IMG/VR virus record: IMGVR_UViG_3300045988_116329
Reading direction: 5' to 3' (one strand)
DNA from: a virus
DNA: 16,945 nucleotides
The position numbers and the translations under genes are program-made. The notes below the pieces were generated by a model. The model did no database searches, was not told where the DNA came from, and was given only the letters and a program-made list of their open reading frames with translations. Of this stretch, positions 2,484 to 12,843 are shown one piece after another (within the stretch, counting starts at the first letter, position 1; the number at the start of each line of letters is the position of its first letter).

Positions 2484-3245
2484 TTACCATAAAGTAAAGA
2501 AGCAATCACTGCAATCCTCAATTATTCGCATATCAATATTGAGAAAAGTCTCTCTAAATTTCTTTAATAAACTACTATAATTTTCTGTACCTTGTTTGCC
2601 TTTTACTGTCTCAATATACTTATCAGTATTATTAATATTTTCTGTACCACTTCCAATTTTATTGTCATCCCTTGTCAAAGTATCTGTACTTTCATTAGTA
2701 GTCGTATTATCTTCATTCACCTTAGTAACTGTGGTCAATGGTACACTATCAACAATACCTTGAGTATCCATACTATTCTGTGGTGTATCACTAAATCTAT
2801 TCAAGGTATTAGTATTACTTGTACCGCCACCACTACTAACATTTTTACTTGTACCACTATTAGTTTCTGTGTTATTACTTGTCCTATTACTTGTACCGCT
2901 ACCCTCTCTACTCCTAGTCAAATCAACATCATAAAAAGGATTAAACTCAAGCAACTCACTTTTATACAACTGATTGTAATAAGGCATAATTTCATTGAGC
3001 TTAGCATTTAACGCTAGTTTCCACCTGCCTACAGTTTCATGTGCAATCTCTCTTGTATAATAATGCTTTAATATTTTCCTGCATAAAACTTGTCTATAGT
3101 TTTCATCAAATATAGGAAAGTCAAAATTAAAAATCTTATTCCAACATTTATCTAAAATGCTATCAACATTGTCTGCACCATCACTCTCATTCAAGCCTGC
3201 ACTGTTTTCGCAAATAAATCTTACCTCTGTTGTGTACTTACTCAT
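2484..3245 (-). CDS. Lower collar (phi29 gp11-like) protein
   Basis: The ORF-track start at 3257 is a GTG. The ATG at 3245 (MSKYTTEVRF...) follows SD AAAGGTGGTGA. The gene overlaps the portal stop by 8 nt and sits immediately downstream of the portal, as gp11 does in phi29. The call rests on synteny plus a conserved-looking N-terminal half; the middle is S/T/N/G-rich and low in complexity. Confidence 0.6.
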   Translation of the reverse strand: MSKYTTEVRFICENSAGLNESDGADNVDSILDKCWNKIFNFDFPIFDENYRQVLCRKILKHYYTREIAHETVGRWKLALNAKLNEIMPYYNQLYKSELLEFNPFYDVDLTRSREGSGTSNRTSNNTETNSGTSKNVSSGGGTSNTNTLNRFSDTPQNSMDTQGIVDSVPLTTVTKVNEDNTTTNESTDTLTRDDNKIGSGTENINNTDKYIETVKGKQGTENYSSLLKKFRETFLNIDMRIIEDCSDCFFTLW

Positions 3246-4137
3246 TGTTATCACCACCTTTACCTATGTCAATCTCATTACTTAAGTTAGCTTCACTAGC
3301 GTCAAACGTATCAAGTACCTCCATATCCTCTCTATAATCAACACTAATGTTCAATCCAAACATTTTGTTAATCTGCTCACAAGCCTGCTGTCTCATATAC
3401 AATCTTGAGTACCTACTAGCAATAGTACCACCTAAATTCCTTTGTACTTCATCAGTTATCATTCTCTCTTTCTTCACAGTATTAACATTACTAATGCCTA
3501 AATATGTCAATGCTTCATTCCAGTACTGTGTCTTTAAATCATATAACTTATCAGCAATATAAGGACTCGTAGTATCTAAAGTTTTAATACCGGTTAAGTC
3601 TAAATTCTTATCACCGAAAATAAATGGTTCATTTCCCATATACTGTGCATAGAGATTTTTCATAACTAATCTCTGATTTTCAGTACAAGTAATAATCTTA
3701 GGTGTTTTCTGTTGTATCACATTAACATCAATAGTTCTCTGTATCTCATACAACCTTTTACTCTTTTCCTGCACATCAAGTATACTGTTAGTGTGAAGCA
3801 TGTTATTAAAAATAATAACACTGTTGCTAGGGTCAAGTTTCATTTGATACCCATTTTGTGCAAAAGCTGTCCTAGTAATAGGTATTCTATAAACATCAAG
3901 TGCACCACCAATCATAACCTGTAGTCCTAAATAGCCCATGACTTCATCCTTAAAAAATACTGCCATTCCGTCATTGAAAAGAGCTAACTCTAAAAACCTT
4001 GCATCAATAGTATCGGGCAGATTCTGCCAATCAAACATTGAAATGCTTAATTCTGTCAGTTTATTAATGTACTGCAAGTATGTTCTTTGATTCTGTAGGA
4101 AAGCTTCTGATTGTGTTTTTCTTCCTCTTCTTCCCAT
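3238..4137 (-). CDS. Portal / upper collar connector protein (phi29 gp10-like)
   Basis: 299 aa. It aligns colinearly with the recalled phi29 gp10. Matches include [26 protein letters not shown] versus [33 protein letters not shown] versus NQNAQKTPVLI, and [10 protein letters not shown] versus KKERMVTDEV, plus a similar C-terminal region ([11 protein letters not shown] versus INELYGLNVKV). Confidence 0.93.
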   Translation of the reverse strand: [299 protein letters not shown]

Positions 4138-4152
4138 TGTCTCACCTCTTTT

Positions 4153-5712
4153 TTAATTAGGACTGTTATCTAATGAATAGTTACCTATTTCACTAGCATT
4201 TTTCCAAAACGTTATACCATTGTCAAAGATATTTTTTATAGCTGTCACATCATTATTATTGCAATTATTTGAAATTACATTACATCCAATAGTTTTAGTA
4301 TAGTTCCAATGAGGTCTACTTGATATATTAGGTGTCTTGACTCTTTTAGTTGCATAGCCATATAAATCAAAATAGTCATCAATAACTCTTGCATATTGCT
4401 CCTTTAAGTGTATTTGAAAATAATAAAAATCCTGTGTACTTCTTACAATTCCTACACCACTGCCTGCATTTCCTTTTACATAATTAGGTAATAATTCATG
4501 TTGTTTATATTCTGCTACGCTTTCTTTTATTTTATCAACTACTCTTATTTCACCTAATGGTGCAGTAGCAGGATTTAATATTGCAAGACTGCCTGCATTA
4601 CTAATAGTACGTTTTACACTGCTAGTCATTGTAACTTTATTTTGCGCCCACCATATTTTGAAAGTATCACTATCAAAACTACATAATGGTAAATTATCCA
4701 TTGTTAAAGCATTTTGATTGGCACTTATACCACCATTGTAATTAATAGGTGTGCATACAAAAGTTAAAGTGTTGGGGTCACAATCTACATCAAAATGGCA
4801 ATATTCATCATTATTAGTAAAATACTCATATTTATAATTTGCTATTTGACTACCACCGTCACTCATACCTATCATACAAAATGGTGACGTTAATAGTTTT
4901 TTATTACGTGGAACATAATTTCCATTTTGCGCAGGTTTTGTTATGCTAAAATTTTTTCTTATTGCAGTATTAGGCATATTTATCGTGCCGTCAGTTGGTC
5001 CAAATTTTTTAGGAAACATAGATATTGAAACTATGCTATCTGTGTAACCTTTTTCATTCATACCGGCAAGCCATGTTGCAAGTTCTTTTTCTTTGTCTTT
5101 TCCTTGTTGAAATACATTGTCATATAAAAGAAAAGCAACGCAACCACTTGACACACCCTCATACTTGTTACCACCACTGTATTGCTGATTGATAGTATAT
5201 GGTGATTGAACTAAAATACCCCATTCATCAAATAATCCAGTATTATGTTTGTTACCATAACTGTACTCACCTAGCTCTAAATTTTCTGCAATAATATTAT
5301 CACCAACATTGTCTGTAATACTATGCTCTCTTTCAACAAAACTTTCTTTAAGAGTGCAATCAAATAGAAACCAAGTTTGCATAACATCAATAGTAAAATA
5401 AACATTACTAACTTTATCATTGACATACTCAATATTAGTAATAAAAGCATAAAACCATTTAGTGCTATAATTAGTATTCTGAAACATCATATAGTTACAA
5501 TTATAAATACTTTCAGCACTAGCACTCATTCTTACAACGCCTTGCTGTCCATTTATTCTCTGAAAGCTAGCCTTATCCATAGTCCTGCTAACTTTACTTT
5601 CAAAATATTCTTTCTGCGCACTTCTGTTTGCAAAATAAATAGTATCTTTATAACTGCTATCTATCGGTACACCACTACACAATTTGATAACACTATTAGG
5701 CTGTATCTGCAT
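4153..5712 (-). CDS. Tail knob / distal tube protein (phi29 gp9-like)
   Basis: The preferred start is the ATG at 5712 (MQIQPNS...), preceded by SD AAAGGTGGTGA; the track start at 5745 lacks an SD. YMMFQNTNYSTKWFYAFITNIEYVNDKVSNVYFTIDVMQTWFLF matches phi29 gp9 YIMFQNADYGNKWFYAFVTELEF...FEIDVLQTWMF. C-terminal IFDNGITFWKNASEIGNYSLDN matches IFDNGITLWHTDNIGNYSVEN. Confidence 0.92.
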   Translation of the reverse strand: MQIQPNSVIKLCSGVPIDSSYKDTIYFANRSAQKEYFESKVSRTMDKASFQRINGQQGVVRMSASAESIYNCNYMMFQNTNYSTKWFYAFITNIEYVNDKVSNVYFTIDVMQTWFLFDCTLKESFVEREHSITDNVGDNIIAENLELGEYSYGNKHNTGLFDEWGILVQSPYTINQQYSGGNKYEGVSSGCVAFLLYDNVFQQGKDKEKELATWLAGMNEKGYTDSIVSISMFPKKFGPTDGTINMPNTAIRKNFSITKPAQNGNYVPRNKKLLTSPFCMIGMSDGGSQIANYKYEYFTNNDEYCHFDVDCDPNTLTFVCTPINYNGGISANQNALTMDNLPLCSFDSDTFKIWWAQNKVTMTSSVKRTISNAGSLAILNPATAPLGEIRVVDKIKESVAEYKQHELLPNYVKGNAGSGVGIVRSTQDFYYFQIHLKEQYARVIDDYFDLYGYATKRVKTPNISSRPHWNYTKTIGCNVISNNCNNNDVTAIKNIFDNGITFWKNASEIGNYSLDNSPN

Positions 5713-7141: not shown

Positions 7142-7462
7142 CTAGCCCTCTCTTTCTTTAAATAAATCATCAAAGGAAATGTCTTTATCGTCATCAATAA
7201 TATCTTCCTTTTGGTCTCTCATTACATCCGTAGGTGTTGTACCTGCGTCACCCTTAAAAAATCGTGCCTTGTATTTTTCTCTCCACTCATTGTCATTCTG
7301 CTCATATTTTGACTTCCAATCTGTGGTATCATTTGCACGTGTTTCAAGGTCATTGAATGTATCAGTAAAATTCTCAATCATAGTAAGGGTATTATCATCA
7401 GCATTATCCCCTGCTAATCCTCTTACTGCTTTCATAAAATCATCATGTGAAAGTACTGCCAT
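7142..7462 (-). CDS. Putative scaffolding protein (phi29 gp7 position)
   Basis: The ATG at 7462 (MAVLSHDD...) follows SD GAGGTG; the track start at 7471 is a GTG. The protein is small (106 aa), highly charged and predicted helical, with an acidic C-terminus. It lies directly upstream of the capsid gene. The call rests on synteny and composition. Confidence 0.55.
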   Translation of the reverse strand: MAVLSHDDFMKAVRGLAGDNADDNTLTMIENFTDTFNDLETRANDTTDWKSKYEQNDNEWREKYKARFFKGDAGTTPTDVMRDQKEDIIDDDKDISFDDLFKEREG

Positions 7463-7481: not shown

Positions 7482-8072
7482 TTAAAATATTGGTCTGCAC
7501 ATCATCCAAATTGGCATACCTTTGCGCTTTGTTGGTGTAGGTGTTGGTGGGGTGGGTGGTGTGGGTGGTGTAACACCAGTTAAGTATTTATACCAGTTAC
7601 TTGCATAAGTTAATCTTTTGGTAAGAGCTTCTACTCCTGCTCGTTCTCTTTCATAGAGATAAGCCTTGCAGGCTTCTGAGACATCTGTTAGCCGTGAAAA
7701 TTCTTCACCAGTATAATTATAACCTAGCGCAGGTTTATGTATCCATTGACCACCATATCCGTTTATTATTTCATCCCACATTAACTGTGTTTGTATTTCA
7801 CCAGTAGCCCAGTCAGAACCTTGCGCACTTGCGTAGTCTGTTAAGTTACTACTAGGTGTCCATTGAATTAAACCCCAGCCGCTTGAAGTACTTGCGGTTT
7901 GTTTCATTCCTGGGTTTATATTAGACTCTTGTTGAAGATTACCTAACATACCTGCTACACTCTCAATGGTAAAACCTTTATTATTAAAGTAGCCATAAAA
8001 CTCTGTAGCGTTGTTTTCCATTTCAGACTGTGTTAAATATGCACTTACGCCAACTTTAACTATCCATGCCAT
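7482..8072 (-). CDS. Phage tail lysozyme-family peptidoglycan hydrolase with Pro/Thr linker and short hydrophobic C-terminal tail
   Basis: 196 aa. VAGMLGNLQQESNINPG...GWGLIQWTPSSNL resembles the signature of the phage tail (tip) lysozyme family. It is followed by TPPTPPTPPTPTPT and then KRKGMPIWMMCRPIF. Confidence 0.7.
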   Translation of the reverse strand: MAWIVKVGVSAYLTQSEMENNATEFYGYFNNKGFTIESVAGMLGNLQQESNINPGMKQTASTSSGWGLIQWTPSSNLTDYASAQGSDWATGEIQTQLMWDEIINGYGGQWIHKPALGYNYTGEEFSRLTDVSEACKAYLYERERAGVEALTKRLTYASNWYKYLTGVTPPTPPTPPTPTPTKRKGMPIWMMCRPIF

Positions 8073-8738
8073 TTATCTAATCCCTAAACTAAAAAGTTTA
8101 TTCCATGTATTTTTGCCACATTGCCCGTCAACAGTTAGACCATATTTTGTTTGAAAGTTTCTGCAAGCTGACTCGCACACTTTGCCATATGTCGTGTCAA
8201 TACTGCCACTGTAAAAACCTAACTTTGACAAAAGTATTTCAAATACTGTTACGTCATTATTTTTTGAACCTCTCTTTAATAAATCCATATTATAACTTGC
8301 ACTTCCTTTACTAGTCTCATTATAACGTAAATGATAACTCCAACCATAACTTGGTATGTAATATTTTCTTATACAGATTTCTTTACCAGTTTGGTCTCCT
8401 GCTTTGCGCCCTTTTGTAGTTCCTTTTTCGTCAATGCTTGCATGAACTATGTGTTCACTATCGGATGATACACAAACATGATGCCCTACTGCTAAATGAA
8501 TGTCACCTTTTTCCCAAGGTTCGTTGCAAGTAGTGAAACCACAACGTTTCAACTGTTCATACAAATTTCTTGTTGTACTGTTGGGATTTACATTAAATCC
8601 TGCTTTAGATAAAGCGTGTCCAACTAATGAACTACAATCAAAGTCAGGATTTCCATTTCTGTTAATTTGTGAATATCCGTGACTATCGTCATTTGCTATT
8701 GCAATCATATAGTTTGTGTAAGTATCAACTTTACTCAT
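8073..8738 (-). CDS. Endolysin: papain-fold cysteine peptidoglycan hydrolase (NlpC/P60-CHAP-Amidase_5 clan) plus PG_binding_1 domain
   Basis: The ATG at 8738 (MSKVDTY...) overlaps the holin stop by 8 nt; the track start is a GTG. The candidate catalytic Cys is in NPDFDCSSLVGHAL, with His candidates in GDIHLAVGHHVCV / HIVHAS. C-terminal LSKLGFYSGSIDTTYGKVCESACRNFQTKYGLTVDGQCGKNTWNKL is a classic PG_binding_1 repeat. Confidence 0.8.
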   Translation of the reverse strand: MSKVDTYTNYMIAIANDDSHGYSQINRNGNPDFDCSSLVGHALSKAGFNVNPNSTTRNLYEQLKRCGFTTCNEPWEKGDIHLAVGHHVCVSSDSEHIVHASIDEKGTTKGRKAGDQTGKEICIRKYYIPSYGWSYHLRYNETSKGSASYNMDLLKRGSKNNDVTVFEILLSKLGFYSGSIDTTYGKVCESACRNFQTKYGLTVDGQCGKNTWNKLFSLGIR

Positions 8739-8940
8739 TCTTATCACTTCTTTCTACATTCAGAATGTCACATAATTTCTGCAAAATCAATGTGTTATCA
8801 TTTAGTGCTGTAGTAAACTTGTCTGTTTCTGCCTTGTGACTTTCATTTAGTTTCATACAGTACCACGCTAAACACAAACACATTACTATAGGAAAGCCTA
8901 CTGTTGTGATAGCCTGCAAAATAGCCTGCATTGTTTCCAT
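8731..8940 (-). CDS. Putative holin (BhlA/UviB-like: one N-terminal TM helix plus charged coiled tail)
   Basis: 69 aa with strong SD AAAGGTGGTGA. A single hydrophobic helix (ILQAITTVGFPIVMCLCLAWYCM) is followed by a charged helical tail. The gene lies immediately upstream of, and overlaps, the endolysin gene. Confidence 0.55.
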   Translation of the reverse strand: METMQAILQAITTVGFPIVMCLCLAWYCMKLNESHKAETDKFTTALNDNTLILQKLCDILNVERSDKNE

Positions 8941-8972
8941 ACCCTCACCACCTTTCTTTTATTCTCTTTTTA

Positions 8973-9001
8973 ATTATATCATATTACTTGAAATTTTGCA
9001 A
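8973..9001 (-). promoter_or_regulatory. Candidate sigma-A-type promoter for the late (lysis plus structural) operon
   Basis: Minus strand reads TTGCAA (8996-9001), a 17-nt spacer, then TATAAT (8973-8978) with TGn extended -10 (TGATATAAT). It lies about 30 nt upstream of the holin SD. Confidence 0.5.
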
Positions 9002-9016
9002 TAATTATGTTATAAT
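8988..9016 (+). promoter_or_regulatory. Candidate sigma-A-type promoter for the packaging ATPase unit
   Basis: Plus strand reads TTGAAA (8988-8993), a 17-nt spacer, then TATAAT (9011-9016) with extended -10 (TGTTATAAT). It lies 45 nt upstream of the ATPase ATG. Confidence 0.55.
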
Positions 9017-9061
9017 AAATTGAGATAATTATAGGCAAATTTAAGAAAAGAGTACAACAAT

Positions 9062-10102
9062 ATGAGTGAAAATAAATACTATGACGGAACTAAACTATTG
9101 TCAATGAAAGACATAAATGGATTAAAGCCTGAACTGTTTATATGTACTACTAATAGAAGTGGTGGTAAGACAACTTATTTTGGTAGATTAGAAGTCAACA
9201 GATTTTTAAAATATAATAAAAAATTCTGTCTGATTTATAGATATAACTATGAGCTTGATGATGTATCTAATAAGTTCTTCAAGGATTTACAAACTTTATT
9301 CTTTAGAAATTACACAATGGAAAGTGAACGCTGTGCAAGTGGTATTTATCATAGTTTGTTTTTGAATGAACAACATTGCGGTTATGCTATAAGTTTAAAT
9401 AGCGCAGACCAGTTAAAGAAATATAGTCACCTGCTTAGTGATACTGATAGTATGCTATTTGATGAATTCCAAAGTGAAACCAATCATTATTGTAGCGATG
9501 AAATAAGAAAATTTATTAGTGTGCATACTAGTATTGCAAGAGGTAATGGAGAGCAGGCGCGTTATTTACCAGTATATATGTTAAGTAATGCAGTCAGTAT
9601 TATTAATCCTTATTATGTGGAACTGGGGATATCTGAAAGACTAAACAGTGAAACTAATTTCTTAAAGGGTGACGGATTTGTACTGGAAAGTGGTTTTATA
9701 GAAACTGCAAGCAAAGCGCAGAAAGAAAGTGGTTTCAATAGAGCGTTTAAGAATAATGAGTATGTTGCATATTCAAGTGAGAACGTGTACTTGAATGATA
9801 ACACTGCTTTTATTGATACACCAGTAGGAAAAGGAAAATATATTGCAACCTTGCGGTACATGAACCATGATTATGCAGTAAAGCAATTTAGTGAGCAGGG
9901 ATTTTTATATATTGATGATAAAGCAGATAGCACATTTAGAAGTAAAATAAGTGTCACTGTTAATGACCATGACATTAATTATGTCATGTTAAAACAAAAT
10001 GATTTATTTATTAGTCAGTTGAGATATTACTTTGAAAAAGGTTGTTTTAGATTTAAGAACCTTAAGTGTAAAGAAGTATTGTTTAAGACTATCAGTTATT
10101 AG
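9062..10102 (+). CDS. DNA encapsidation ATPase (phi29 gp16-like)
   Basis: 346 aa and the only plus-strand gene. Walker A is TNRSGGKTTY and Walker B is SMLFDEF. VNRFLKYNKKFCLIYRYNYEL matches phi29 gp16 INRFIKYGEQFIYVRRYKPEL. LSNAVSIINPYY matches LSNAVSVVNPYF. Confidence 0.93.
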   Translation: MSENKYYDGTKLLSMKDINGLKPELFICTTNRSGGKTTYFGRLEVNRFLKYNKKFCLIYRYNYELDDVSNKFFKDLQTLFFRNYTMESERCASGIYHSLFLNEQHCGYAISLNSADQLKKYSHLLSDTDSMLFDEFQSETNHYCSDEIRKFISVHTSIARGNGEQARYLPVYMLSNAVSIINPYYVELGISERLNSETNFLKGDGFVLESGFIETASKAQKESGFNRAFKNNEYVAYSSENVYLNDNTAFIDTPVGKGKYIATLRYMNHDYAVKQFSEQGFLYIDDKADSTFRSKISVTVNDHDINYVMLKQNDLFISQLRYYFEKGCFRFKNLKCKEVLFKTISY

Positions 10103-10220
10103 GTATCTGCTATTGTACGTACACTTGATACTGCTAGGTAGCACGTTTGGAAGATAACGCTAGTATGTATTGTCGTAAATGCTGTGCGCTTGTGTTCTGC
10201 AATGGTTATAGATATAGAAA
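10103..10220 (+). ncRNA. Candidate structured RNA in the ATPase 3' region (possible pRNA-like packaging RNA); hypothesis only
   Basis: The segment has no ORF. Hand count gives 46/115 G+C (40%) over 10103-10217 in an AT-rich genome. Its ends pair: 10103-10108 with 10210-10215 (6 bp), 10110-10117 with 10198-10205 (8 bp), and 10121-10124 with 10192-10195. Three of these pairs are G-U, valid only in the plus-sense RNA. Internal stems are possible at 10128-10132/10162-10166 and 10144-10147/10156-10159. The terminator follows directly. Confidence 0.35.
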
Positions 10221-10249
10221 AGGCAAGAGTTTTATACTCCTGCCTTTTT
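10218..10249. terminator. Bidirectional rho-independent terminator between the convergent ATPase unit and replication operon
   Basis: Stem AGGCAAGAG (10221-10229) pairs with CTCCTGCCT (10237-10245), with one mismatch and a 7-nt loop. It is flanked by AAA upstream and TTTT downstream, so either strand yields a hairpin followed by a U-run. Confidence 0.65.
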
Positions 10250-10252
10250 GCT

Positions 10253-10513
10253 TTATTTGTAAATATTTATTAATAGTTCATTTAAATCAATTTTAGCTTG
10301 TTCAATGATTTCTAATATAGACTTATTAATGTCGATACGTATTCTTAGCTCATATTCATTGTCATTTATTTTAAGATAGTAAATTATTGAAGCTCTGTTA
10401 TATTTCTCTTCAATTTTATAACTGTTAAAATTAATTTTTGTATAAATCTCATTTAAACTCTCTTTTATAAAATCAGCAAAATGATTGTATTTTTTCAAAT
10501 AATATTTATCCAT
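10253..10513 (-). CDS. Hypothetical protein (last gene of replication operon)
   Basis: 86-aa ORF with SD AAGGAGAA 7 nt upstream of the ATG. It ends just before the terminator. I recognise no motif. Confidence 0.65.
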   Translation of the reverse strand: MDKYYLKKYNHFADFIKESLNEIYTKINFNSYKIEEKYNRASIIYYLKINDNEYELRIRIDINKSILEIIEQAKIDLNELLINIYK

Positions 10514-10528
10514 ATTTTAATTCTCCTT

Positions 10529-10762
10529 TTATTTATAAAAATGATTGTGTATATCTGTTGCAATTATTATATTTAATGAAAGTACAATTTCTCTTGTATC
10601 TTTTTGCTTTACATAGTCATATGATAATAGCTTTGATAAGTATAAACCATTCAAACAATATTCTATTTTATACTGTTCTGTGCAAGGTACATCATAAAAC
10701 TCGATTGAACCTTTAAATCTTTTACGCAGTTCCTGCACTACTTGTTCCATTTTTGTATTCAT
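10529..10762 (-). CDS. Hypothetical protein
   Basis: 77-aa ORF with SD AAAGGAGAG that overlaps the stop of the upstream micro-ORF. I recognise no motif. Confidence 0.65.
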   Translation of the reverse strand: MNTKMEQVVQELRKRFKGSIEFYDVPCTEQYKIEYCLNGLYLSKLLSYDYVKQKDTREIVLSLNIIIATDIHNHFYK

Positions 10763-10765
10763 AGA

Positions 10766-10891
10766 TTATCTCTCCTTTGTAAAATAATCACAATCATATT
10801 TGCAATCACAGAAACAACACATATGATTGCAAGTTTTTTCCTTTTTCTTTGCCTTGTGTCTATAATATAAATCTACTAACCATGTTATCAT
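10766..10891 (-). CDS. Cys-rich 41-aa micro-protein (not in ORF track)
   Basis: My own translation gives MITWLVDLYYRHKAKKKEKTCNHMCCFCDCKYDCDYFTKER. SD GAGGTG lies 9 nt upstream and overlaps the polymerase stop. Its stop sits inside the SD of the next gene, so it exactly fills an otherwise unexplained 137-nt gap. Confidence 0.5.
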   Translation of the reverse strand: MITWLVDLYYRHKAKKKEKTCNHMCCFCDCKYDCDYFTKER

Positions 10892-10899
10892 AATATTTT

Positions 10900-12843
10900 T
10901 CACCTCATTTCATATGTCGTGTCAACCAGTAATACTCCACCCTTAATTCTCTTTGGAAGTAATTTTCCGGGAACACATAAACCAACTTTAAAATCGCTGT
11001 AATCTCTTTTTGTTGCTAAAAATTTTAATTCACTTTGTGTATAATCGTCACTCTCCTTTGCTTCATAACCCTGCATAGATTTATTAAATAAGTCTTTGCA
11101 TTTCTGTGGCATACCTGCACACTTAATATCATTGTATGGTTCATCAACTGGAATTAAATCATTATGTGTAATGTGTTCTATATATGTTTTCTGTCTTGTA
11201 AAAATAGCTGTATCCCAACTACTCTCCAATTTCCAACAACAAAACTTTACAGGGTCTACTGTTATGCCATTTACTTTATCAGCAGGCAAGTCACAATGTA
11301 TACTATCCGTATCTGCATATATAAACCCTGCTTTGTCTACACCATAGTAATTTTGTTGAGCCGCTGTGATTGTAAAGTTTCTTGCGTATGATGTTATTGC
11401 ACTGCCAGTTGCTATGTGACCCACCTTTTTATTGTTAGCAGGAACTATATAAAAGCCTATACTTTCATCTTCTTTAACATACGCAACCTTGAAACTACTA
11501 TTAGAACTACTGGCAAGCTTGCCATATAGATTATTGAGAAATAGTTTAGCTTCCGTACGCTTTGCTCCTTTGCTTTTCATTTTTATTTCTGCATAATGAT
11601 TGATGTAGTTATCAAAGATACCTATGTCAGAATAAAACCAACATCCGTCAAGGATTTCAAAGTCAATCAGTTCATAGTGCTTTAACATTAGCTTGTAATC
11701 TGTCATTGTTATTGTCATTATTTGTGCAGTATCTTTTATGTTTCCATTTATGTCTTTATAGTATCTGTTATAGTTTTCGTTTTTGTCTAACACATCACTA
11801 GTTGTCAATGACTCAGTTCCTTTATATAAATGATTACCTTTTATTTGAATAAATGGTAACATATTTTCTTTAATATAAAAGCGTGTTTTTATTCTTAAAA
11901 AGTAATACTTATTTTCTCCTATGGCTTCATTAGGTATTATATTACCACTCCAAAAATAAGGTCTACCTATTGGAAAATAGTTCCCACTTTGAGAGTGCAT
12001 CATACTAGGATATAAAGAGTTTACGTCAGCGGTCACACCATTATGTCTAATAATATTTTCTTTTCCTTTTACTAGATAGCACCAACCCCCTCTATAACTA
12101 TGTCTTATATATTCGTCAGCATTGGATGAACCATATATATTTTTATCAATTGTAAATTCATCAAGCGCAGGGAATAAATCGTTATAATCATAAGCGCCTA
12201 ATGAGTTTTTGTATTCAGCTACACAACATGAGCCTATTGTTAATTTATCGTGTCCGTCATTAAATAACTGTTCAAGTGCTTCTTTAACTACTAAAACGTC
12301 ATTAGCTATATACTGTTTCTCTTCATCAGTTATAACGCAACCTGCATATCTATATCCGGTATATTCCATATCTAATTTTTGATGCTTTGTTTTAAAAGAT
12401 TTACCTATTTGTTTTACTGAAAATGGTAATAACTTTAAGCTATCTCTTAATTCTATAAAATGGTTATTAACTTTAATAGTTAACATATACCATTGACCCA
12501 TAGAAGATATTGTGTATCTGAATGTATTATTTTTCATATATCTTTCTTTAATAAATTCGCCTTGTGTACCCTCTTCATTATATTTTTCATATGCCTGCTC
12601 ATACTTTAGCTTTGTTAATAAATATGACAACCAAAAATTACCGTCAAATTTTAAATTATGATAGTATGCTATAATGTCGCAATCTAATGACTTAAAATAA
12701 TTATATTGTTCATCAATAGAATGAAAAATCTGCACGTTTTCTGTATATAATTCTACGCTTGCACTTGCCCATACTTCTGTAAATGTTTGACCCTTATATA
12801 CTGTTGTTTCAAAATCACACATAAATTTACGATAATTTCTCAT
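10900..12843 (-). CDS. Protein-primed family-B DNA polymerase (phi29 gp2-like)
   Basis: 647 aa. All signature motifs are present: ExoI CDFETT; ExoII YYHNLKFDGNF; ExoIII YIANDVLVV; motif A DVNSLYPSMM; motif B KLFLNNLYGKLAS; motif C YADTDSIH; KxY RQKTYIE. The start overlaps the TP stop (ATGA). Confidence 0.97.
   Translation of the reverse strand: MRNYRKFMCDFETTVYKGQTFTEVWASASVELYTENVQIFHSIDEQYNYFKSLDCDIIAYYHNLKFDGNFWLSYLLTKLKYEQAYEKYNEEGTQGEFIKERYMKNNTFRYTISSMGQWYMLTIKVNNHFIELRDSLKLLPFSVKQIGKSFKTKHQKLDMEYTGYRYAGCVITDEEKQYIANDVLVVKEALEQLFNDGHDKLTIGSCCVAEYKNSLGAYDYNDLFPALDEFTIDKNIYGSSNADEYIRHSYRGGWCYLVKGKENIIRHNGVTADVNSLYPSMMHSQSGNYFPIGRPYFWSGNIIPNEAIGENKYYFLRIKTRFYIKENMLPFIQIKGNHLYKGTESLTTSDVLDKNENYNRYYKDINGNIKDTAQIMTITMTDYKLMLKHYELIDFEILDGCWFYSDIGIFDNYINHYAEIKMKSKGAKRTEAKLFLNNLYGKLASSSNSSFKVAYVKEDESIGFYIVPANNKKVGHIATGSAITSYARNFTITAAQQNYYGVDKAGFIYADTDSIHCDLPADKVNGITVDPVKFCCWKLESSWDTAIFTRQKTYIEHITHNDLIPVDEPYNDIKCAGMPQKCKDLFNKSMQGYEAKESDDYTQSELKFLATKRDYSDFKVGLCVPGKLLPKRIKGGVLLVDTTYEMR

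Follow-up and report, generated by a model that had tools for sequence, protein, structure and literature searches.

The virus genome in IMG/VR record IMGVR_UViG_3300045988_116329, a stretch of 16,945 nucleotides (nt) called the window here, harbors a 115-nt RNA element on its plus strand (10102-10216), at the stop codon of the gene for a gp16-type DNA-encapsidation ATPase. Judged from the comparison of relatives, this element is certainly a conserved, strand-specific structured RNA. It is probably the prohead (packaging) RNA, or pRNA, of a clade of gut-clostridial phi29-like phages, produced as the 3'-terminal part of the ATPase transcript. A strand-specific structure, complementary loops, linkage to the ATPase gene and phi29-type motor proteins were all observed, and with these we consider a new pRNA family the likely interpretation; transcription, processing, an intermolecular ring and binding to connector and ATPase are steps that we infer from the sequence. 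A preliminary description had proposed a candidate pRNA at this place, and every pRNA hallmark testable in sequence that has been added here (genome type, fold, covariation and loop complementarity) supports it.

The pRNA was first reported in 1987, and phi29 and its Bacillus relatives have remained the only phages in which it is described (PMC11476376, a 2024 review); full-text searches of the literature found no report of a pRNA outside Bacillus phages. A 2025 Infernal-based survey, which used the pRNAs of phi29, GA1 and DLc1 as seeds, gives 12 new pRNAs (PMC12670572). Among the phages it names, BC-5, vB_BceP_LY3 and Bfsp1 correspond to records of Bacillus or, for Bfsp1, Cytobacillus phages.

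Conservation and covariation of the RNA element

The covariance model R1, built from 27 diverse copies of the element, matches the window at 10102-10216 with 111.7 bits (E = 5e-24). The 5' end, G10102, doubles as the G of the TAG codon that stops the ATPase gene (10100-10102), and the conserved 3' end is A10216. The preliminary description had placed an ORF-free, GC-enriched structured element at 10103-10220; its non-coding and structured nature stands, while its actual conserved ends are these two bases. The stretch from the ATPase stop to the hairpin (10217-10249) has only trivial TTG/GTG open reading frames (ORFs) of at most 49 amino acids (aa). G+C content, given earlier as 40%, is 40% in 10102-10216 and 39% in 10103-10220, against 32% in the whole window and 18-25% in the flank just downstream. 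ARAGORN found no tRNA or tmRNA genes, and curated Rfam 15 models (ribozymes, riboswitches) gave no match above threshold. At the gathering score and at E up to 10, Rfam returned only chance matches to small RNAs (sRNAs) driven by the terminator, such as HrrF (25.6 bits vs a threshold of 77), and these were rejected.

BLAST against phage records detected five relatives, including the cultured Clostridium symbiosum phages CS229P1-3; CS229P1 has the element at 10552-10666 of OP172772 (L002 2548-2662). The relatives that were read through carry the ATPase gene followed by a stretch that opens with GGUAUC and closes with GAUAUA and a terminator. Two scans of IMG/VR with ATPase proteins contributed 157 further loci, which make 161 with three GenBank records and the window. 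Exactly one copy per locus, on the ATPase strand, was found by R1 in 160 of these loci, and the sole locus lacking a match has a truncated ATPase match. ATPase identity to the scan query reaches down to about 55% among the element-bearing loci. The element mostly starts within 30 nt of the ATPase stop codon and is near-constant in length (113-117 nt). With default filters, R1 had no match in eight distant phi29-like genomes (CI55P2, CPS2, phiZP2, MT835826, MT835873, OP549880, Enterococcus CUB-FM and Staphylococcus Andhra). The RNA family is confined to one ATPase clade.

In three relatives the RNA is separated from the ATPase stop by one or two small ORFs (L055 3035-3271, L168 2247-2487 and L162). 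The products of those inserted in L168 are very hydrophobic and resemble membrane peptides, and the stop codon of the last one lies inside the 5' strand of the RNA. In all three loci the RNA keeps its place at the end, with the terminator next.

The fold was examined by covariation, as the preliminary description had suggested, and the outcome favors its proposal. RNAalifold, applied to a structure-blind MAFFT alignment of 27 sequences, returned 36 pairs, 30 of them with compensatory changes. A structure of 41 pairs is 91.8% paired on the MAFFT alignment, compared with 68% in shuffled sequences and 27-44% with slid partners. On 52 diverse sequences, 93.9% of the cells of this structure are paired (65% in shuffles) and 36 of the 41 pairs show double changes. 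The covariation score is 0.716 vs 0.174 and was reached by none of 500 shuffles. Covariation is present in every helix. The terminal pair is G-U in 39 of the 52 sequences, and therefore the RNA belongs to the ATPase-sense strand. Specificity for this strand had already been proposed from three G-U pairs in the terminal helices, and these are real (10103/10215, 10111/10204 and 10116/10199); the consensus fold of the window sequence contains five G-U pairs in all. The folding energy is -29.7 kcal/mol for the sense strand vs -14.6 kcal/mol for the antisense strand. Energy was nevertheless rejected as evidence for the fold itself. For 10103-10220 it is not significant (z = -0.67), 50 of 200 shuffles folding as well or better, and the interior of the minimum free energy (MFE) structure differs from the consensus. 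Since energy alone does no better than chance, the significance of the fold comes from the comparative data only.

In the consensus, the arms meet at a three-way junction with strands of 0, 3 and 0 nt. Helix A (5' strand 10103-10127, 3' strand 10189-10215) has 20 pairs. Its outermost part, A1, pairs the nearly invariant GUAUCU (10103-10108) with AGAUAU (10210-10215); A2 pairs 10110-10116 with 10199-10205, A3 pairs 10119-10124 with 10192-10197, and G10127 closes the junction with C10189. The three helices are paired at 99%, 95% and 90%, respectively, in the alignment of the 52 sequences (alignment A2), and all 13 pairs of helices A2 and A3 have double changes. The 3' strand contains a conserved 4-nt bulge, UUAU in the window (10206-10209) and UUA(N) in the majority of the 52 aligned sequences. 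The end pairing listed in the preliminary description agrees with the outer helix of the single-sequence MFE structure as well as with the covariation-supported consensus. The C-E arm (10128-10170) is composed of helix C (10128-10137/10160-10170), with compensatory changes in eight of nine pairs, the 5' bulge loop GUAGCA (10138-10143), the counterpart of the CE loop in phi29 pRNA, with the presumed kissing bases AGCA (10140-10143), and hairpin E (10144-10147/10156-10159), in which all four pairs show compensatory changes. The E loop is UGGAAGAU in the window (10148-10155) and UGaAAuAUa in the family consensus. A 3-nt linker between helices C and D (10171-10173) is UGU here and U-a-U in the consensus; by the R1 and RF00044 consensus lines it occupies the place of the UUU linker in phi29 pRNA. 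Hairpin D (10174-10188) has the stem 10174-10177/10185-10188 and the loop AAUGCUG, in which UGCU (10180-10183) is the complement of the AGCA of the bulge.

Some members have an elaborated D arm. In one subclade (L003 2486-2620 and L093-L135) it is enlarged by an extra hairpin of about 20 nt, a feature unlike phi29 pRNA. The loop of this hairpin is always GUAACA, its stem covaries (ACC/GGU, AGC/GCU, GCC/GGC), and it adjoins a hairpin that retains the UUGC loop.

Complementary loops and comparison with known RNAs

The bulge and the D loop can form three to five contiguous Watson-Crick pairs in all 52 sequences. Their covariation spans at least ten variants: AGCA/UGCU, AACC/GGUU, UGAC/GUCA, ACACA/UGUGU, GGCA/UGCC, AGUA/UACU, AGG/CCU, CGCA/UGCG, CUGUA/UACAG and UAACA/UGUUA. 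The loop-loop pair 55-106 is AU in 32 sequences, CG in 6, GC in 4, UA in 1 and UG in 1; pair 56-105 is GC in 40, AU in 5 and CG in 3; and pair 57-104 is CG in 47, GC in 2 and UA in 2. These three core positions show either the common pair or a double change, with no one-sided changes. Double-change cells number 26 vs 2.9 expected, and pairing between the loops was observed at 90.5%, against 20-62% in slid controls, in alignment A2, with the same outcome on the MAFFT alignment. The loop pairs lie outside the covariance model, and therefore the test on A2 is not biased towards them.

Complementarity of this kind, with covariation, is the "interlocking loop" hallmark of pRNA. The loops of phi29-type pRNAs pair through 3-4 nt and covary (PMC12670572; PMC5066667), and covarying paired loops of 3-4 nt serve as a criterion for validating new pRNAs (PMC12670572). 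In phi29, a ring on the prohead is closed by intermolecular pairing of the CE (right-hand) loop with the D (left-hand) loop (PMC5066667).

The consensus structure lines of R1 and of RF00044, the Rfam pRNA model, agree element by element and are nearly superimposable. In both the R1 family and phi29 pRNA, helix A is bulged and end-paired, a three-way junction joins the helices, and the D loop covaries with the CE bulge, to which it can pair over 3-5 nt. Helix C has 4+5 base pairs (bp) in the R1 family vs 5+4 bp in RF00044, the 5' bulge has 6 nt vs 9 nt, the E hairpin has 4 bp in both, and the junction linker has 3 nt in both (UaU vs UUU). The D hairpin, also common to both, has 4 bp and a larger loop in the R1 family vs 6 bp in phi29 pRNA, and the core is 115 nt long vs 118 nt in RF00044. 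A 3' extension is dispensable in phi29 pRNA, while in the R1 family it is the terminator. Both RNAs are encoded by phi29-like protein-primed podophages with genes for a gp16 ATPase and a gp10 connector. The hosts are gut Clostridia (Lachnospiraceae-type) for the R1 family and Bacillus for the RF00044 phages. The Bacillus phages with pRNAs of this type belong to the phi29, PZA, M2/Nf, B103, SF5, GA-1 and DLc1 groups.

Natural RNA homo-oligomers, the same kind of assembly as the ring proposed below, are known in ROOL, GOLLD and OLE (PMC12286853). Unlike the element, these are several hundred nt long, form RNA-only cages and have no linkage to a packaging ATPase.

Genome context and similar RNAs in other phages

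The window comes from a genuine phi29-type phage, and at about 17 kb it appears to be the complete genome. A Pfam scan detected the gp10 connector, the gp9 tail knob, the phi29 major capsid protein, the type-B DNA polymerase (PolB) and the gp16 ATPase. The ATPase gene (9062-10102, plus strand, 346 aa) matches PF05894 (Podovirus_Gp16, E = 7e-31) over residues 2-341; its product is about 25% identical to gp16 of phi29/PZA and 67.6% identical to the ATPase of Clostridium symbiosum phage CS229P2. It is the only plus-strand ORF of more than 140 aa, and Pfam-matched minus-strand genes flank it on both sides. PolB, assigned by Pfam, is encoded at 10900-12843 (minus) and the gp10-type connector (portal) at 3238-4137 (minus; PF05352, E = 7e-63). 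By analogy with phi29, the connector is the presumed docking partner of the RNA. The N-terminal RKR motif of phi29 gp10 (residues 3-5) is needed for pRNA binding (PMC12084888). The translated connector of the window begins with MGRRGRKTQ, a basic patch resembling this motif.

A promoter-like site with an extended TG (TTGAAA, 17-nt spacer, TATAAT; 8988-9016, plus) was recognized by its match to the consensus alone, at 11 of 12 positions. It is the top-scoring site in 8700-10900, lies 46 nt 5' of the ATPase start codon, and may be the start of an ATPase-RNA transcription unit. Its minus-strand partner (9001-8973, TTGCAA/TATAAT) also has an extended TG. The divergent pair (8973-9016) separates the lysis/structural genes (minus) from the ATPase gene (plus) and forms a compact divergent control region. 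On the other side of the RNA, a terminator-like hairpin, AAAAGGCAAGAG...CUCCUGCCUUUUU (10217-10250, plus), was found in the fold of 10102-10256 (z = -2.5). With an A-run 5' of its stem and a U-run 3', it could terminate transcripts from both directions. A consensus terminator scan did not pick up this hairpin, perhaps because of a stem mismatch. The RNA core and the terminator hairpin together would make an RNA of about 150 nt, and a GC-rich hairpin with a T-run is found 3' of the element in nearly all the listed relatives. An ATPase-RNA unit with its own promoter and terminator had been suggested before, and it fits the promoter-like site, the hairpin with its U-run and the position of the RNA, which is 3'-terminal in the unit in all but one of the 161 loci. 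A second possible promoter, in the 3' end of the ATPase gene (TGTAAA, 17-nt spacer, TATCAG, with a start at G10102), was rejected; it is weak and not conserved in L001, L002 and L003.

In the non-coding gaps of more distant clostridial phi29-like phages, whose ATPases are about 24% identical, two RNAs of unrelated sequence and the same architecture were seen. One is found in Clostridium phage CI55P2 (L085, OP172760; about 4709-4816, plus) and in L170-L182, in the 150 nt that separate the end of the PolB gene from the ATPase start codon; this gap forms an A helix and a three-way junction, and a U-run comes directly 3' of the RNA. Its bulge AUACCAC, followed by an E hairpin, and its D loop CUGGUAA are complementary through UACCA/UGGUA; nine of 39 pairs are compensated over 14 sequences, and the loop pair is invariant. 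The other, GC-rich and non-coding, is present in the C. perfringens phages phiZP2 (L090, NC_018084; 16545-16675, minus) and CPS2 (L086; 1355-1490, plus), upstream of the scaffold-capsid operon and behind a promoter-like site (TTGCAA, 18-nt spacer, TATATT). It has a pRNA-like fold with the bulge CGCCA and the D loop UUGGCU (GCCA/UGGC). Two divergent sequences were compared, and the RNA is 97-99% conserved in 15 other records. Both look-alikes were spotted by eye in a handful of gaps, with little sequence diversity, and as pRNA-like RNAs they count as leads and not yet as findings.

In Enterococcus phage CUB-FM (L091; 4575-4745, plus) a region with a three-way-junction fold (z = -1.7) was found, and no bulge/loop complementarity was seen in it. 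This structured region and a terminator lie between PolB and the late genes, behind a promoter-like site (TTTACA, 17-nt spacer, TAAAAT), and two short coding sequences (CDSs) are annotated over it. Nothing pRNA-like was found in the gap 7298-7408 of Staphylococcus phage Andhra.

Other non-coding features were observed in these genomes. The palindrome TGTTTCACGTGAAACA, or a near copy, recurs in non-coding DNA of phi29-like phages that are otherwise distant and infect Clostridium symbiosum, C. perfringens and Enterococcus (L002 2524-2539; L062 and L003, after the RNA; L090 about 10320-10340; L086 about 7686-7701; L091 about 4745-4765). Possible readings are a small mobile hairpin or a site bound by a regulator. 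A pistol ribozyme (RF02679, 55 bits vs a gathering score of 34.5) is present in the human faecal phi29-like phage MT835826 (L087; 16259-16334, minus).

Proposed role in the packaging motor and alternative explanations

As part of a packaging motor, the RNA would be co-transcribed with the ATPase gene from the promoter near 9000, with transcription ending at the hairpin at 10217-10250. It abuts the stop codon with no conserved promoter, which argues for its being made as the 3' end of the ATPase transcript, and trimming of this end of the mRNA would perhaps leave a stable RNA about 115-150 nt long. The RNA would fold into a three-way junction, and the C-E arm and D hairpin of one copy would pair with neighboring copies, bulge AGCA to D loop UGCU, closing a ring that sits, at the vertex of the prohead, on the connector's narrow and basic end. 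The outward-pointing A helix, with its invariant UAUC/GAUA end pairs and its UUA bulge, would then dock the gp16 ATPase, which would translocate the terminal-protein-linked genome. The A helix of phi29 pRNA scaffolds the ATPase (PMC5066667; PMC3479190).

Several observations weigh against assigning the element to the pRNAs. In the nearest-neighbor model an alternative interior fold of the window sequence is favored by 4.2 kcal/mol, the consensus interior pairs have a probability of at most 2%, and the MFE structure recovers at least 80% of the consensus pairs in only 22 of the 52 members; this energy model leaves out kissing contacts and proteins. The preliminary description had also pointed to the Rfam pRNA model, and here its proposal gained nothing: RF00044 has no match in the window at its gathering score (100 bits), nor at E up to 10 over 8900-10400, while it scores the PZA pRNA, used as a positive control, at 144.7 bits. 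The element therefore cannot be filed as a member of RF00044 and is treated as a pRNA-like family; similarity to the Bacillus pRNAs was not detectable in sequence either. In the reverse direction, R1 with default filters does not match PZA (L084). Once the filters were off, R1 scored highest in a PZA segment of 701 nt where the PZA pRNA lies, and in the same register; this weak match (9.1 bits, E = 0.1) is suggestive in favor of a pRNA, though not significant. The bulge of helix A is in the 3' strand in the R1 family, whereas in phi29 it is in the 5' strand (18-CCA-20, Rfam consensus). No conserved promoter was found directly 5' of the RNA, including the loci with intervening small ORFs; the phi29 pRNA gene has its own early promoter. 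Because its 5' end abuts or overlaps the stop codon and it lacks its own promoter, the RNA could become a discrete small molecule only by processing, which is assumed here. The gene lies in mid-genome at the ATPase stop, whereas the phi29 pRNA is encoded near the genome 5' end, at bp 147-320 of the phi29 record (PMC11476376). Finally, the loop covariation is, by sequence, equally compatible with an intermolecular kiss and an intramolecular pseudoknot.

This last point, together with the invariable 3'-terminal place of the RNA in the ATPase transcription unit, its overlap with the stop codon and the lack of a promoter of its own, would also suit a cis-acting element in the 3' untranslated region (UTR) of the ATPase mRNA. 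The bulge and D loop would form a pseudoknot within one molecule, which would stabilize the transcript or tune the ATPase with no role in the motor. Such an element appears unlikely. An RNA that only stabilizes a transcript has no use for a 115-nt structure in which the end helix is invariant, the E loop conserved and the three-way junction a mirror of the one in pRNA. RNAs of the same architecture are located 5' of the ATPase gene in the CI55P2-type phages and 5' of the late operon, with a promoter-like site of their own, in the C. perfringens phages. The shape is thus conserved while its position relative to a gene varies, which argues for a trans-acting role and against one in cis or in a 3' UTR that depends on position. 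The geometry may also be unfavorable, as the D hairpin has 4 bp and the bulge is about 10 bp up helix C; phi29 pRNA is built likewise, and there the contact is intermolecular (PMC5066667).

A trans-acting regulatory sRNA released from the 3' UTR, base-pairing with phage or host mRNAs, would have the size (about 115-150 nt), the 3' terminator and the 3'-UTR origin that are typical of sRNAs. Bacterial sRNAs derived from 3' UTRs likewise lie at an mRNA end, share the mRNA terminator and need processing for a 5' end of their own, and the weak, terminator-driven Rfam matches were to sRNA models. The element, however, conserves a self-complementary loop pair and a three-way junction and has no target-binding seed. 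Its conserved single-stranded segments pair with each other and are not free to act as one, the loop sequences vary freely while staying complementary, which is the opposite of a conserved seed, and no Rfam family matches at threshold. We therefore regard a regulatory sRNA as very improbable. Even less credit is given to a self-cleaving ribozyme or other catalytic RNA that would process the ATPase transcript. Some cleavage is needed for a 5' end at the stop codon, related phages carry ribozymes (the pistol ribozyme of MT835826), and a three-way junction with a tertiary loop contact is also found in hammerheads, but no Rfam 15 ribozyme family matches at E up to 10, and the element has no conserved unpaired core. 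A hammerhead-like reading in particular was rejected, the junction strands of 0, 3 and 0 nt being too short for a hammerhead core and no model giving a match.

A pRNA of the packaging motor hence remains our preferred identity for the element. It is conceivable, and somewhat short of probable, that pRNA is an ancestral component of phi29-like packaging motors, present in nearly all of them, with a sequence that has diverged too far to be recognized, that it is here the 3' end of the ATPase mRNA, and that the look-alikes are further members.

If the element is a pRNA, the need for RNA in the motors of other phi29-like phages would be directly testable. This question is of high interest and accessible to experiment because the cultured Clostridium symbiosum phages CS229P1-3 carry the element. 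The ancestry of the RNA-dependent motor would become traceable across families. RNA coupled to the ATPase mRNA would be a new mode of expression for a motor RNA, with one transcript providing both a motor protein and a motor RNA. RNA nanotechnology, which now relies on a handful of Bacillus pRNAs, would gain at least ten complementary loop pairs and many variants of the three-way junction. Genome annotation would also improve, for example in the record of C. perfringens phage CPS2, where a CDS of 40 aa (gp05) is annotated over the candidate RNA.

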